Shown piece after piece: positions 7,526 to 62,737 of a stretch of DNA of 64,000 nucleotides (position 1 is its first letter; each line of letters begins with the position of its first letter). The DNA is from Dictyostelium discoideum. Its lineage: Eukaryota. Where the stretch lies: NCBI GenBank assembly GCA_000004695.1, contig CM000151.3, positions 3,968,001 to 4,032,000 on the forward strand, in the 5' to 3' direction. The translations under genes were made by a program, and so were the position numbers. Under the pieces are notes generated by a model that was not told the DNA's origin, made no database searches, and saw nothing but the letters and a program-made list of their open reading frames with translations.

Positions 7526-7880
7526 TTTTTTTTTTTTTTTTTTTTTTCCCCTTTTACTTTTATATTATATAAATATAGAATAATATAAAAAAAAAAAATA
7601 AACAAATAAATTAAAAAAAAAAAAATTAAAAAACTAAAAAAAGTGTGTGGACAAAATGAAAAATGATGAAAATTTTTTTTTTTTTTTTTAAATTTACAAA
7701 TTTTCACATTTTTTTTTTTTTTTTTTTTTTTTTCAATTAATTTATTGGAAAAAAAGATTTTTTTAAAAAAATTTTTCCGATAAAAAAAAGGTTGTAAACG
7801 AACCCCCAGTTAAATAATAACAACAACAATAATAATAAAAATAAACACTATATAATATATATATATATATTTATAAAATA

Positions 7881-8616: not shown

Positions 8617-8667
<51 letters not shown>

Positions 8668-9235
8668 AAATGTGTTGGCTTTTTGTTTTTTTAAAGAGAT
8701 TCTTTTTATATATATTCCAAATTTTTTTTTTTTCCATTTTTTTCCTGTGTATTTGGATGATATATTTTTTAAATTTCTTTTTGATATCTTTTAGAAATAA
8801 CATTTAAAAAAAAGATTTTTTTTTTTTTAAGATTTTTTTATTTTCTAAAAATGGTCAATGCAGGTTAAAGTTTTTTTTTATTTTATTTTATTTTTTTTTT
8901 TAGTTTTTTTTTTATTTTTTTTAAAAAAACTTTTTTTTATTTTTTTCCTTTTTTAATTATTTTCTTTTACAACACTCGTGGTTTAAAAACTTATACACTC
9001 ATAAGTTAAAAAAAATAAAAATAAACTAGATACATTTCTTAATACTCTTTTTTTTTAAACAAAAAAAAAAAAAAAAAACCAAAAATAAAAACAAAAAAAG
9101 AAATAGTATAATAGAAATAAAAAAAAAAAATAAAAAAAATAATAAAAAAAAAATAAATAAATAAATAATAAAAAAATATATTTATAAGAAAAAGGAATTG
9201 TTTTAAAATTAAAAAAAAATAAAAAAAAAAAAAAA

Positions 9236-24985: not shown

Positions 24986-26203
24986 TTAATTTATTTTAAT
25001 AAAATTATTATTATTAAAATCTTTTAAAATTGAATAAAATATAAATGATTTTTTAAAAACTATTGGATTAATTTGATTCTTTTGATTAATATAATGGTTA
25101 TATAATTTCTCTAAAAATTTCTTTATAAATTCATTGTTATTATTATTAATATTATTAATATTATTATTATCATCAATGAAATTATTATTAATTGTAATTA
25201 AAATGAATAAAATGTTCAAAAATGATATTTGTACTCTCCAATGTTGATTTAAATCAATCATATTAATCATTACACTTTCATTACAATTATCAATTAAAGA
25301 TAGTGATAAAATAGGTTGCTGTTTAATTATTCTATAAAATGCTGAACTTGATGAAATTTTTATATTATTATTTAATTCATCTTCTAAATTATTATCATCC
25401 TTTATATATTTTAAAAATTGATTCAATAATTGTTTACTTTTAATTGAAAAATATTTTATATAAATTGGACGTGTTATTAATAGATTATCAAATGTTTTAA
25501 TTAAATATAATAATATAGTTTTATCAATTGCTTTATTTGTTGTTATTATTGAACTAAGTGAAATTTGTGGAAATAATGATGGATTTGGTATTGATGATAA
25601 TAATGATGGTGAAGTAGATGATGGCGATGATGGCGACGATGACGATGATGACGATGATGGTGGTGGTGATGAAGATGGTGATGATGAATCATTTATTAAA
25701 AATAAATTTAACAATGTGTTTATATATTTCTCTAATGAAAGTATACCCCATTTAGTTGAAAGTGTAATTTCATCCAATGTTGAAAAATAAAATAAAATTT
25801 CACCAAATGTTGATACTAATTTCCTTTTTAATGATAATTGTATATTATTATTATTATTAAAAGATGATATTTCATTATTTAAGTATTCTAATAATTGTAT
25901 TATTGAATCTTTTGAATTTATTGATAGGTTATTTGACTTTCCAATAATTATACCTAATAAATGAATAATTTTTACTTTTATAATTGTATCATTTGAAATT
26001 TTAATTTGTTGTACTAATTGTTTTATTAATATCGTATGTTCATTTATTATTATTAATAATTTTTCAATAATTGATGAATATTGATTATTTGATAATAATA
26101 ATAAATCTATTAAATAATTTAATAATGTTAATTTCGTAATAATTGTAGTTTTAGTTTTAATAAATTTTGATATAAAATTAAAATATTCAATAATTTCTTG
26201 ATA

Positions 26204-26281
<78 letters not shown>

Positions 26282-26607
26282 TAACAATTGTAAATCTTTA
26301 ATTGTTTTATTAAAAATTATTGGAACTGAAGAAGAAGAAGAGGAAGAACAAGATGATAAAGATGATAAAGGTGGTGATGATGGTCTATTTGGAGATATAA
26401 TTGGAGAAGCTTCAAAATCAATTGAATGATCGAATTCACTAATTAATCTTGTAAAATTATTATTTTCAATTAAATTTGAAAAATCATTTAAACTATTTGT
26501 TTGTGAAATATTTAATGGTGGAATTTTCACTTTATTTAACCTAATAACTTGATTTTCTAAATTTGGTGATGATATATTATTTGGTTGTTGTTGTTGTTGA
26601 AATGATA

Positions 26608-26680
<73 letters not shown>

Positions 26681-27145
26681 ATTTAAAAGTTGTAAAGTTG
26701 TATTTGAAGATTTATTTATAATTTCATTTACTTGTTGAGTTTGTTGATTTTTGAAAAATGGATGAATAAATAATTTTGGCCATGTTATTCTTTTTTGAGG
26801 ATTTTTCTCTAAAATTTTTGAAATTAAGTCATTGAAATGTTGTTGTTGTATTAAATCATTATTATCAGATGGTAATCTAATGATTGGATCTAAATAATTG
26901 TCGTATATTATTGACTCTATTAATTTGGTTGCATCATTAGAGTAGAATGGATAATATCCAGTTATACATTTAAATAGTAATACACCAAATGACCAAATAT
27001 CTGATGAAAAACTATATGTATATCCTTTTAAAACCTCTGGTGATAAATAATAAATTGATTCATTTATATTATTATTATTATCATTATCAATATTATTATT
27101 ATATAAATTAAATATTTGTTGTCTTGATGTTATCATTATTTGTTG

Positions 27146-27214
<69 letters not shown>

Positions 27215-27550
27215 TTCAATTAAAATTGAATTATTTATTGAATTTAATTTAAATATTCCTTTTGAATCAATTAAAATATTTGATGGTTTTAAATCAGCAT
27301 ATATAATATTATTAGAGTGTAAATAGTATAAAGCATTCATTATATTTTTTGAGAATATAATTGAAGTATCAATTGATAAATATTGATCAGAATTTAAAAA
27401 TTCTTTAAATGAATATTCAAATGATATTCTTTTAACTAAATAATAAGTACTTAAATTTTCTTTAACATTTTCATCAACATAATTTATTTGATCTTGATTT
27501 TGATTTTGATGATCTGATTTTATTCTTTTAAATGATTCTTTTATTGGCAT
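24986..27550 (-). CDS. Protein kinase-like (probable pseudokinase) domain followed by a long helical/low-complexity C-terminal region (SCY1-like architecture?). A candidate upstream exon lies at about 27762..27921.
   Basis: The catalytic-loop equivalent is 'IIYADLKPSNILI' (HRD replaced by YAD). DFG is replaced by 'FKLNSINNSILIE'. An APE-like 'YYLSPEVL' and helix-F 'SDIWSFGVLLF' are retained. No GxGxxG loop is seen. The upstream ORF 27626..27982 contains 'MKISNYYIVEDFDISEEN...YVAKARKQ...' ending at a GTAAAT donor. That could be the missing N-lobe, but its phase does not join cleanly to M27550. Confidence 0.6.
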
Positions 27551-31703: not shown

Positions 31704-33665
<1,962 letters not shown>

Positions 33666-36148: not shown

Positions 36149-36189
<41 letters not shown>

Positions 36190-36220: not shown

Positions 36221-38226
36221 TTATTTTTGAACTAAAATTGAAGTACCACCTTTAAATTTAGAATTTTTAAATTGTGGTATTTTATTAACTTCCCAATTGA
36301 TTTTATTTGAAAGGTTTTCATCCAAAATATTTGAAATATCTAATGTGTAGATATCATCTATTGATTCTTTTGTGACATTATTATATCCACCTAAAATGTG
36401 AACTATCCTTTTCGAAGAATCAAAAATTATAGAATTACCATTTATCATCATTGGTTTTGGTAATAAAAGATTTTGTAGACCACCACCACTATCACCATCA
36501 TCATCATCATCATCATCATGATTATTGGTTAAAACTGACCAACTATTATCTAAAAGATCATATCTTTGAATTATTGATAAACATTTATTCTCTTTTGAAT
36601 TGTAACCACCTAAAACGTAAATATAATGTTCTTGATCATCATAGAAAACACCAGCACCATAACAACTGACTGGTAATGGAGATAAGGTAGTAAAACTATC
36701 ATTATCAATATCATAACGTTCAAGTGTATCAACTGATTGTCTAGTTATATTACAACCACCAATTAAATAGATTGAATTATTATCTTCTTTATAAATTGCA
36801 CCCATACTCCAAAGATTTCTTGAAGATGTTGTAGATTTGGATTGCTGTTTTGAAAATTGTTCAGTGATAATATTAAATTTTAAAATTGATGTCGATCTTT
36901 GGGAATCCACCAATTAAATAAATATTTTGTTTACCATCAAATACTGAAACAATGTAAAAATCTACCATTATCTGGAATTTCAATATTACCATTGGCACCA
37001 TTAGCACCATTATTATTATTATTATTATTATTGTTTGTTTCAATAATCTCCCATTGGTCTTCTAATAAATTATATTTTAATATACGAGTTGGTTGTAATG
37101 AGCCACCAAATAGATAAATATGATTCTTTCCATCGAAATTACCAGTGAAATCATTATCCATTATTGATGGTATCGATTGTAATGATCTCCATAAACCTTG
37201 TTTAAAATCAAATTTTTCAATTGAATATTGGTCGAATCCATCCTTACATTTTCCACCAATTGAATAAATACATTTTGTATCTTCTAAATTTGAATTCAAT
37301 CTTTTATATTCCAAAGTTTCAATAATTTTAAATTTTAATTTTCCAAATATTTTTAATTTTTTATTTGATTTCATTTTTAAACTATCACCATTATTATTAT
37401 TCTCACAATTATCAAAATCATCTTTATTATCATTATTATTATTATTATTATTATCATAGTCATCTGTATCATCATTATTATTTGAAAATTCTTGAAATTT
37501 TTTATTTAAATCATCAAAACTTTTAAAACTACTATTTAATATTAAATCTGAAGCCATTGATGAAATTGGTTTTGGTTGTTTAATTATTTTTCTATTGGTT
37601 GTATTATTCTCTTGAAATTCATCTTTCCAATCCCATTCAATATATGATATTGATTCTTTTAAAACTTGTAAATAATCAGTTTGAAATGAAGTTGACTTTT
37701 TTAATGGTGATGTCATTGGATTGTTATTATTATTATTAGTGACCATTAATGATGATGTTGAATAATTTAAAGGTGATGAAGCGAAACCTGATGATGCTGA
37801 TAAATAATTTGATAAATTACCACTATAACTTGTACTATGTGATAATCCACCACCACCACCACCGCTAAATACTACTCCTCCACTACCACCGCCACCACTT
37901 GAATTAATATTAATATCAAATTTTGAAGGTGAATTCATTTTCTTATTTAATTGTTCAATTAACATCATTGATTTATCTCTATTTGATTCAATTTGTTGTT
38001 TATGTGCTTCTAATTCTTCACCTAATTGTTGAAGTAATTCAATCTTTCTATCTGTAAGATAATTTATAATTGTATCGAAATCTTGACAAATCTTTTTCTT
38101 TGTTTCTATAAATGATTCATCACATCTTTCCAAGGTTTGTTCGCTAATATCCTTGTAGATTGATAATTTTTCAATGGTATTTCTCCAATGATCATTTAAA
38201 TTTTTAAATTCTTCATTTTCTATCAT
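36221..38226 (-). CDS. Kelch-repeat protein with an N-terminal coiled-coil region. It lies in two overlapping reading frames (ORFs 36937..38226 and 36221..36913) separated by an apparent 1-nt frameshift at a T5 run near 36950.
   Basis: Kelch blades recur on both sides of the break ('CIYSIGGKCKDGFDQYSIEKFDFKQGLWRSL', 'NHIYLFGGS', 'NIYLIGGFPKID', 'IYLIGGCNITRQSVDTLERYDIDNDSFTTL', 'YIYVLGGYNSKENKCLSIIQRYDLLDNSWSV', 'VHILGGYNN'). Removing one T from 'AGATTTTTACATTG' gives the continuous '...EIPDNGRFYIVSVFDGKQNIYLIGG...'. Confidence 0.7.
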
Positions 38227-39719: not shown

Positions 39720-39754
<35 letters not shown>

Positions 39755-41999: not shown

Positions 42000-42052
<53 letters not shown>

Positions 42053-55176: not shown

Positions 55177-55209
<33 letters not shown>

Positions 55210-55837
55210 AAAAAAAGAAAAAAAAATATAAAAATAAAAAAAAATTAAAAAAAAAAAAAAAAGTTAAATCCAAATTTGTAGTTGGAGATTGATATATATC
55301 GTTGAGAACCAAAAAAAAAAAAAAAAAAAAAAAAAAATCAAATAAGAAAAGAAAGTTAAGAAAAGAAATAGTCCAATTTAGTAAAAAAAAAAATTTTATT
55401 TAATTTTTTTTAAGAAACATAATTTAGTAAAAAAATAAAAAAATAAAAAAAAAAAAAAAAAAAATAAAAAAACTACATATTTTAATAAATAAACTCGGGC
55501 CACATATTATTTTCTGTTTTGATTGAATCTAAAAATTTTTTTCAAAAAATTGTGGGACCCAAGAAATAAGGAAAAAATAAAAAAAATGAAAAAAATAAAA
55601 AAAAATAAAAAAAATAAAAAAATAAAATTTTTTTTTTTTTACAAAAATAAATATCTCACAAAAATTAATCTAAATTTAGCGCCATTGAAAGAGCTTTTTT
55701 CTTTTTCTTTTTCTTTTTTTTTTTTTTTTCTTTCTCTCAAAGACACACCACGATTATATTTGAAAAAAAAAAAAGGTGTGAAAAAAAAAAAAATAAACTA
55801 AAAGTTTAAACATAAAAAAAGAAATACTATAAGAAAG

Positions 55838-55873
<36 letters not shown>

Positions 55874-61039: not shown

Positions 61040-62737
61040 ATGGAATTAAATTCAAAATTATTTTTTAAATTATGGAGAAATAAAGTTATTAGATTACGTA
61101 TATTTTATCATTTAAATATATTTTATAGTCATATATTTTCAAGAGAGTTTTCAATTCATGAAATTAGATTATATAAATTTAAAGAGTATTTACAAAATGT
61201 AATATTAACAGATCAAGAATTTTATAAATGTAAAATTAATTTACCATTAAATGTTGAAAAGTTAGCATTTAAAAATTTTAATCAAGAGATTGGTTCAGGT
61301 TGGTTAGATGGTAATGAAAAATTAACTCATTTAGATCTTGGTAAAAGTTACAATCATCCTTTGAAAATTGGTGATATTCCAAATGGAATTACAAATTTAA
61401 CACTAAGTTATAATTTCGATTTCCAAATTCAACCATTTGCAATACCATCAAGTGTAACATCCATTACATTTGGTAATCGTTGGAATCAACAATTAATTAA
61501 AGATAGTTTACCAAAATCTTTAAAATCTTTAAAATTTGGTTCTTGTTTTAATAATAAAGGTAATCCAATTGATTTTTCAATATTTCCAAAATCAATTGAA
61601 TCTATTATTTTTGGTAAAGATTTTCAACAATTAATTGAACCAAATTCATTTGAAACTTTTTTACCAAATTTAGTAAAATTAGAATTTAATTCAGAATATA
61701 AAAAAAAATTAAAATTAAATTCAATTCCAAAAACTGTAAAAGAATTATTCTTAGGTTATAATAATAATTTTAATAATAATAATAATAATAATGATGAATC
61801 AATATTTAAATGTATACCAAATAGTGTTACAAAATTAACATTGGGTGATTATTTAAGTAATCCAATTGAAGCATATGATTTACCAGATTCAATTACAGAT
61901 TTATCATTGGGTTTAAATAATTCAATTAATGTTGGATCAATACCAAACTCAGTGAAATCATTGGAATTCTTTAGTTATAATAGGTCAACACCAGATGGTA
62001 CATTACCAAATTCATTGGTTAAACTTAAATTTAGTCAAGATTTTAATCAAGAATTATCATATGGATTATTTAAAAATTGTTATGAAAGTTTAACAAGTTT
62101 AGATTTAGGTTACCTTTTCAAACGTTTTAAATCTGGTGTTTTACCAAAGAATTTAAAAGAATTAAAATTTAATCGTCTTTTTAATCCAGATTATTTAGAC
62201 CCAAATTCAATACCAGATTCAGTTGAAACTTTACAAATTATGCCAAATTTTAAATTAAATCAAAATAATAATAATAATATACCAAAATCTTTAAAAAATT
62301 TAATTTTAATTAATTTTAATTGTGTAATTCCAAAAGATTATTTTAAAAATTCAAATGTTTTATGGAATCAATTAAAATCATTAGACCTTAGTGAATCATC
62401 ATTCAATTCGGTCATTCATGAAGGTTGTTTACCTTTAAATTTAGAAATTTTAAAATTTAGTTCAGAATTTAATCAAAATTTAACATTGGAAATGTTACCA
62501 CCAAATCTTAAAACTCTTCAATTAGGTTCAAATTTTAATAAAATAATTAATAGAGATAATATGCCTGAATCATTAACAACTCTATGGGTTTTAGGTTGTC
62601 CAAAATTAACCCATGATCAATTACCAATTAATTTAATTTCAATTTTCACTTATAATACTAATAAAGAATTTTTAAATTCTTTAGATTATGATTATTTTTG
62701 GTATTTTTTAAAAATTATAAAAAAATATTATTGGTAA
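61040..62737 (+). CDS. FNIP-repeat protein (Dictyostelium-type FNIP/'FNxxLxxxxLPxSLxxLxFGxxFNQ' leucine-rich-like repeats).
   Basis: The 565-aa ORF contains about 12 tandem ~22-residue units of the form 'SLPKSLKSLKFGSCFNNKG', 'LPNSLVKLKFSQDFNQELSYG', 'LPKNLKELKFNRLFNPDYLD' and 'IPKSLKNLILINFNCVIPKDYF'. Confidence 0.75.
   Translation: MELNSKLFFKLWRNKVIRLRIFYHLNIFYSHIFSREFSIHEIRLYKFKEYLQNVILTDQEFYKCKINLPLNVEKLAFKNFNQEIGSGWLDGNEKLTHLDLGKSYNHPLKIGDIPNGITNLTLSYNFDFQIQPFAIPSSVTSITFGNRWNQQLIKDSLPKSLKSLKFGSCFNNKGNPIDFSIFPKSIESIIFGKDFQQLIEPNSFETFLPNLVKLEFNSEYKKKLKLNSIPKTVKELFLGYNNNFNNNNNNNDESIFKCIPNSVTKLTLGDYLSNPIEAYDLPDSITDLSLGLNNSINVGSIPNSVKSLEFFSYNRSTPDGTLPNSLVKLKFSQDFNQELSYGLFKNCYESLTSLDLGYLFKRFKSGVLPKNLKELKFNRLFNPDYLDPNSIPDSVETLQIMPNFKLNQNNNNNIPKSLKNLILINFNCVIPKDYFKNSNVLWNQLKSLDLSESSFNSVIHEGCLPLNLEILKFSSEFNQNLTLEMLPPNLKTLQLGSNFNKIINRDNMPESLTTLWVLGCPKLTHDQLPINLISIFTYNTNKEFLNSLDYDYFWYFLKIIKKYYW

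Follow-up and report, generated by a model that had tools for sequence, protein, structure and literature searches.

Singh et al. (2017; PMC5282741, BMC Genomics 18:120) reported 119 'introns' of less than 5 bp in 102 dictyBase gene models of Dictyostelium discoideum and, on the basis of RNA-seq, regarded them as artificial fixes introduced by curators to accommodate errors in the genome sequence, introns of 1 bp being mechanistically impossible. Read-level proof was provided for clcD and DDB_G0279477; DDB_G0274267, the gene considered here, was not individually discussed. The curated models of dictyBase combine ESTs, published sequences and similarity, and pseudogenes are flagged as they are encountered.

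DDB_G0274267 resembles these tiny-intron models in that its curated transcript, DDB0304412, contains two 1-bp skips, and no difference in kind was found between it and them. Its predicted product resembles the Kelch-repeat β-propeller proteins, with six xYxxGG blades, significant Pfam scores and full-length orthologues in four of the four dictyostelid groups sampled, and differs from them in that Pfam detects no BTB/BACK or F-box domain. The likeness to programmed +1 frameshifting, as known from antizyme, yeast Ty1 and Euplotes genes, is limited to the formal skip of one nucleotide: unlike the shifts in those genes, the sites in DDB_G0274267 are unconserved and have no adjacent stop, and two of them would be required, 48 nt apart. 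The frame break in DDB_G0274267 is most likely no biological feature, and the data presented here argue that it arises from a short stretch of poor consensus in the AX4 chromosome 2 reference.

Results

The stretch of DNA analysed (the window, 64 kb) is the 63rd 64-kb tile of chromosome 2, so that an offset of 62 x 64000 = 3,968,000 converts window positions to chromosomal ones. An exact-sequence look-up matched the TrpRS ORF in the window to the AX4 chromosome 2 protein XP_643957.1. From its ORFs, sequence and Pfam matches, the whole coding span of the Kelch-repeat gene DDB_G0274267 was placed on the minus strand at 36221..38226. DNA alignments were made with three loci, namely a second D. 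discoideum assembly (L001), D. citrinum (L002) and assembly GCA_054883475.1 (L003).

Two long minus-strand ORFs, of 429 aa (38226..36937) and 230 aa (36913..36221), each contain Kelch motifs when searched alone with Pfam, which bears out an earlier sequence-only reading of this DNA in so far as it proposed a minus-strand Kelch-repeat gene interrupted near 36950. That reading had the two ORFs in two frames and overlapping by about 40 nt. They are in fact 23 nt apart (36936..36914), the first being closed by a TGA at 36939-36937 and the second preceded directly by a TAA at 36916-36914. The figure of 40 nt fits instead the 41 nt (36913..36873) that the downstream ORF shares with a further ORF, 37043..36873, which is in a third frame and was found by three-frame translation to bear the conserved SVFDGKQNIYLIGGFP. 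The stop coordinates of the ORFs fall into three different modulo 3 classes. Since the third-frame ORF carries SVFDGKQNIYLIGGFP, two frame changes are needed to reconstruct the gene and not one.

The coding sequence can be assembled from three segments, all on the minus strand. The first (36948..38226, frame A) runs from Met1 to ...GRFLHC, a motif that is kept in the orthologues (alignment A1); read literally past this point, frame A continues as FSI* into the TGA at 36939-36937 and gives the 429-aa product. The first extra base follows within a T3 run at 36947..36949, where the window has tgTTTca and all three comparison loci have tgTTca. The second segment (36900..36946, frame B) encodes SVFDGKQNIYLIGGFP, which forms the conserved core strand of Kelch blade 3 with its GG turn, and is followed by the second extra base, within an A3 run at 36898..36900 that reads cccAAAg in the window and cccAAg in the same three loci. 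The third segment (36221..36898, frame C) encodes RSTSILKFNIITEQF... as far as the stop codon and supplies blades 4-6 as well as the remainder of blade 3. The coding sequence thus runs over three frames, and the two separate +1 insertions sit in 3-base runs 48 nt apart, both of them inside blade 3. All other indels in the Kelch gene relative to the three loci are multiples of 3.

The doubly repaired conceptual protein was used as the query for a homology search, which returned full-length orthologues from other D. discoideum assemblies, D. citrinum, D. dimigraforme and D. firmibasis and, at greater distance, from Polysphondylium violaceum, Tieghemostelium, Cavenderia, Acytostelium and one EukProt entry. 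The comparison took in ten orthologous proteins (P0001-P0009 from alignment A1, together with P0010-P0011). GRFLHCSVFDGKQNIYLIGGFPRSTSILKFN is encoded in one frame in three other D. discoideum assemblies, three other Dictyostelium species and five remoter dictyostelids, and the alignment consensus, ...EIPxxGRFLHxSVFDGKQxIYLIGGFPRSTSILKFN..., is present in all orthologues. The orthologous ORF is uninterrupted over 2016 nt in L001, 1929 nt in L002 and 2004 nt in L003, and all the other assemblies examined have the gene as a single exon. Two of the checks that the earlier reading had proposed have an answer here: the Kelch region is single-frame in every orthologue compared, including that of D. 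firmibasis, and the additional D. discoideum assemblies L001 and L003 lack the extra T and A and have an identical T5 run.

It was at this T5/A5 run that a single 1-nt change had been placed. The run (36956..36960, minus strand) is not a shift site; TTTTT is also present in L001 and L003, and D. citrinum has TTCTT. As the orthologues read GRFLHCSVF, the upstream frame is correct through the whole of the run and on to GRFLHC. The proposed remedy of deleting one T from the run does not restore the gene and produces instead 450 aa ending ...GGFPKIDINFKI*, after which a second 1-nt deletion anywhere in 36915-36875 is required to reach 667 aa. The peptide created by that deletion, GRFYIVSVF, had been considered sensible and is not ancestral, given that the orthologues uniformly have GRFLHCSVF in its place. 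Furthermore, the shift had been confined to 36930-36995, an interval that excludes the second extra base.

The gene is already annotated in AX4 as 'Kelch repeat-containing protein DDB_G0274267', of 667 aa (Q86J11 sequence version 2, XP_002649180.2, EEU04128.1; P0012). Translation of complement(join(36221..36898,36900..36946,36948..38226)) reproduces Q86J11.2 residue for residue over all 667 aa, and therefore the annotation omits exactly one T (36947) and one A (36899). These two positions correspond to chr2:4004947 and chr2:4004899. Additional file 3, Table S1 of Singh et al. (2017) contains two 'tinyintron' rows for DDB0304412, chr2 4004946-4004948 and chr2 4004898-4004900, each on the minus strand with Length=1, and both coincide with 36947 and 36899. 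Fewer than five bases are skipped at each frame break and the annotated protein is obtained only with the skips. An exact look-up for plainly called genes encoding the literal 429-aa product or the curated 667-aa product found neither, and a literature search on the name DDB_G0274267 found no papers. The frame break is thus already known, being curated in dictyBase, GenBank and UniProt and listed in the literature; the curators may have bridged it from similarity alone.

Judged by its sequence, the DDB_G0274267 product is a 667-aa, six-blade Kelch-repeat protein. The curated protein (P0012) scores 79.9 bits with the Pfam profile Kelch_1 (cut-off 20.1), 66.1 bits with Kelch_6 and 69.9 bits with Beta-prop_ATRN-LZTR1 (cut-off 50), all above the curated cut-offs, and has six tandem blades, where a Kelch β-propeller typically has 5-7. 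The six xYxxGG blade motifs, identified from sequence only, are at aa 320, 370, 435, 485, 535 and 608. Invariant columns of blade 3 in alignment A1 are D430, I435, Y436, L437, G440, F441 and P442. The literal 429-aa product has only two complete blades, so closure of a propeller would be impossible. Outside the propeller, residues 1-95 (37941-38226) are strongly conserved across Dictyostelia, with many invariant columns from F50 to D84; no Pfam profile matches this N-terminal stretch of about 95 aa, which resembles a coiled coil.

AX2-214, like AX4, is descended from NC4. Over an alignment of 22 kb, L003 shows 99.3% identity to the window. Nanopore plus Illumina assemblies of AX2-214 and of wild isolates diverged from AX4 were described by Holland et al. 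(2025; PMC12745789), who found AX2 and AX4 to be 99.5% identical at another locus. Based on its near-identity to AX4 and on this strain list, L003 is probably AX2-214. Within the Kelch gene the window and L003 have four differences, all within 150 nt: TT in place of AA at 37046-37045, the extra T and the extra A. The remaining ~1.85 kb of the gene is the same in both. The two insertions are peculiar to the window in the DNA alignments with all three loci (+T at 36949-36947, +A at 36900-36898), and the TT dinucleotide at 37045..37046 (minus strand) is likewise private to it, L001 and L003 both having AA (DNA alignments and alignment A1). The product of L003 differs from Q86J11.2 by I394K only. 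Residue 394 is Ile in Q86J11 and Lys in every other sensu stricto Dictyostelium sequence, those being the AX2-like and OT3A/CR116C-like sequences, D. citrinum, D. dimigraforme and D. firmibasis; Ile394 of Q86J11 probably derives from the error patch, the true residue being Lys.

When substitutions were polarised with L001 as outgroup, the window was the outlier in 42 of 48 and L003 in 2, and by our own count 32 of the 42 window-outlier substitutions are transversions. Such one-sidedness is unlike natural divergence. With two further loci of the L003 contig added, 55 kb of the window was covered and contained 130 differences, which cluster in a small number of short patches (7709-7786, 8656-8714, 31960-32254, 36898-37046 and 55177-55838 relative to the AX2-like contig). 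At the rate of 2.9e-11 mutations per site per generation obtained by Saxer et al. (2012), it is not credible that sister laboratory strains should differ by dozens of true changes in 22 kb. The same authors reported 1916 candidate differences from the reference that were shared, giving no positions for them, and parental AX4 was resequenced by Li et al. (2016).

Several other irregularities were observed in the window. At 31960-32254 there are ~35 window-private substitutions together with indels of 12 nt, 3 nt and 1 nt relative to the AX2-like assembly, and L001 sides with L003 at almost all of the differing positions. This patch breaks an 86-codon exon segment of a neighbouring gene, which is open in L003 (...LKLNPADLKSKYESLKRKYSILSSDLNQ...), into two frames. 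It has the look of a further low-quality consensus stretch of the reference within a gene, and is absent from the tiny-intron list of Singh et al. (2017). At 27547 one base is missing in the window, which has ATGC-CAATAAAAG where L003 and L001 have ATGCACAATAAAAG. The missing base falls at the 5' end of the opening exon of the 854-aa ORF 24986..27550 (minus strand); upstream of it the frame is open in other assemblies (IEIYKNLKLKNENICTIKESF...), and in the window the frame starts at an ATG (MPIKESF...). Position 27547 may be a reference frameshift that was left uncorrected and taken up into a different gene model.

The patches at 7709-7786, 8656-8714 and 55177-55838, with up to 13 differences in 60-80 nt relative to the AX2-like contig, are apparently intergenic according to the gene calls in loci L005 and L004, and are patchy like that in the Kelch gene. 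At 61040-62737 a single ORF of 565 aa encodes the FNIP repeat protein DDB_G0274731 and equals the AX2-like annotated protein; the AX4 database model has only 518 aa and may be shorter than its open reading frame allows. Between 26157 and 48260 most indels between the window and L003 are changes of length in long non-coding A or T homopolymers (for example 42035-42048, 36175-36184 and 39746-39752). In most cases the longer run is that of the window, and polarisation with L001 is mixed; these indels may reflect genuine microsatellite variation, or an incorrect length in one or other assembly.

Discussion

We propose that, within blade 3 of DDB_G0274267, one T (36949-36947) and one A (36900-36898) of the AX4 chromosome 2 reference are spurious, and that the nearby TT for AA at 37046-37045 is a miscall, all three belonging to one 150-nt stretch of poor-quality consensus. 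The real DDB_G0274267 would then most likely be one uninterrupted exon, as it is in the other strains and species examined. The dictyBase curators were aware of the problem, and their model DDB0304412 arrives at Q86J11.2 by skipping both bases as artificial introns of 1 bp. Because the differences are patchy and one-sided and the mutation rate is low, a local low-quality chromosome 2 consensus is the most economical reading. Three-base runs are not classic sites of homopolymer error, which is a point against it. Taken together, we put the probability that the two extra bases are reference errors in a single low-quality patch, already bridged by curators, at roughly 0.88, and we infer from the sequence comparisons that the extra T and A are missing from real AX4 DNA. 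The earlier reading had left a choice between a homopolymer error of the assembly and a frameshifted allele; the former is favoured, although the site, the number of shifts and the repair were all wrongly assigned.

Under-calling of homopolymers by Nanopore sequencing in L003 was considered as a source of the discrepancy and rejected, given that the runs are only 2-3 bases long and Illumina short reads were also used. The L003 reading is shared, moreover, by two further strains and by every other species.

The foremost alternative is that the insertions are real in the AX3/AX4 lineage, in which case DDB_G0274267 would be a disabled allele encoding 429 aa with two intact Kelch blades and the 667-aa model would be over-optimistic. 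The reference does literally read with both extra bases, and loss-of-function alleles do build up in laboratory strains. AX4, the most widely used Dictyostelium reference strain, would then be a natural Kelch-propeller knock-out, and the database protein Q86J11 would not exist in it. For this, a gene that matches the AX2-like copy everywhere else would have to have acquired three independent changes within 150 nt, which is not credible at 2.9e-11 mutations per site per generation, and the window contains other dense patches of private changes, one with ~35 changes in 280 nt, that cannot all be mutations. No other stops or frame-breaking indels were found in the Kelch gene, as might mark a unitary pseudogene, and its identity outside the 150-nt patch to the intact AX2-like copy also argues against that class. 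Meanwhile, DDB_G0274267 has been retained as protein-coding by the dictyBase curators, who do flag pseudogenes. The derivation of AX3 used nitrosoguanidine, which would yield mainly transitions; clustered mutations induced by this mutagen in the AX3/AX4 lineage were rejected as an origin for the private changes, as these are mostly transversions and single-base insertions. On balance a real disabled allele is improbable.

Far less probable again is a recoding event, in which the mRNA would keep the extra bases and the 667-aa protein would be made by two programmed +1 ribosomal frameshifts or by RNA editing. The sole point in its favour is that two single-base skips, one per site, are needed for the full-length protein. 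The extra bases occur in no other strain or species, so there is no conserved recoding site, and the compared proteins (ten, P0001-P0011) and three loci (L001-L003) are all single-frame. Neither site has an adjacent in-frame stop, the zero-frame stop being 3 codons downstream at site 1 and further away at site 2; by eye, no known +1 shift heptamer or motif was seen at either. Furthermore, both sites would have to have arisen within ~50 years in one laboratory lineage.

Equally remote is a real spliceosomal intron whose excision would take out the out-of-frame stretch and bring the two long ORFs together: 34 GT/GC...AG combinations of 152-464 nt formally yield one open frame, but all 34 would cost blade 3 the sequence SVFDGKQNIYLIGGFPRSTSILKFN, kept throughout Dictyostelia, in a gene whose orthologues are single exons, the stretch has a coding-like GC content of 0.27 against 0.09-0.11 in the flanking non-coding DNA, and introns of only 1 bp are mechanistically impossible (Singh et al. 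2017, PMC5282741).

If the extra bases are reference errors, as we favour, the biological significance of the Kelch frame break itself is small. More generally, the raw AX4 chromosome 2 sequence would contain short error patches that imitate frameshifts and pseudogenes, and scans of the raw sequence will as a result keep re-finding the ~119 sites that are bridged by impossible introns of 1-3 bp, plus some that are unbridged. The new assemblies of AX2 and of wild isolates enable systematic correction of bridged and unbridged sites alike. The correct product of DDB_G0274267 would have 667 aa, and its residue 394 would probably be Lys and not Ile.
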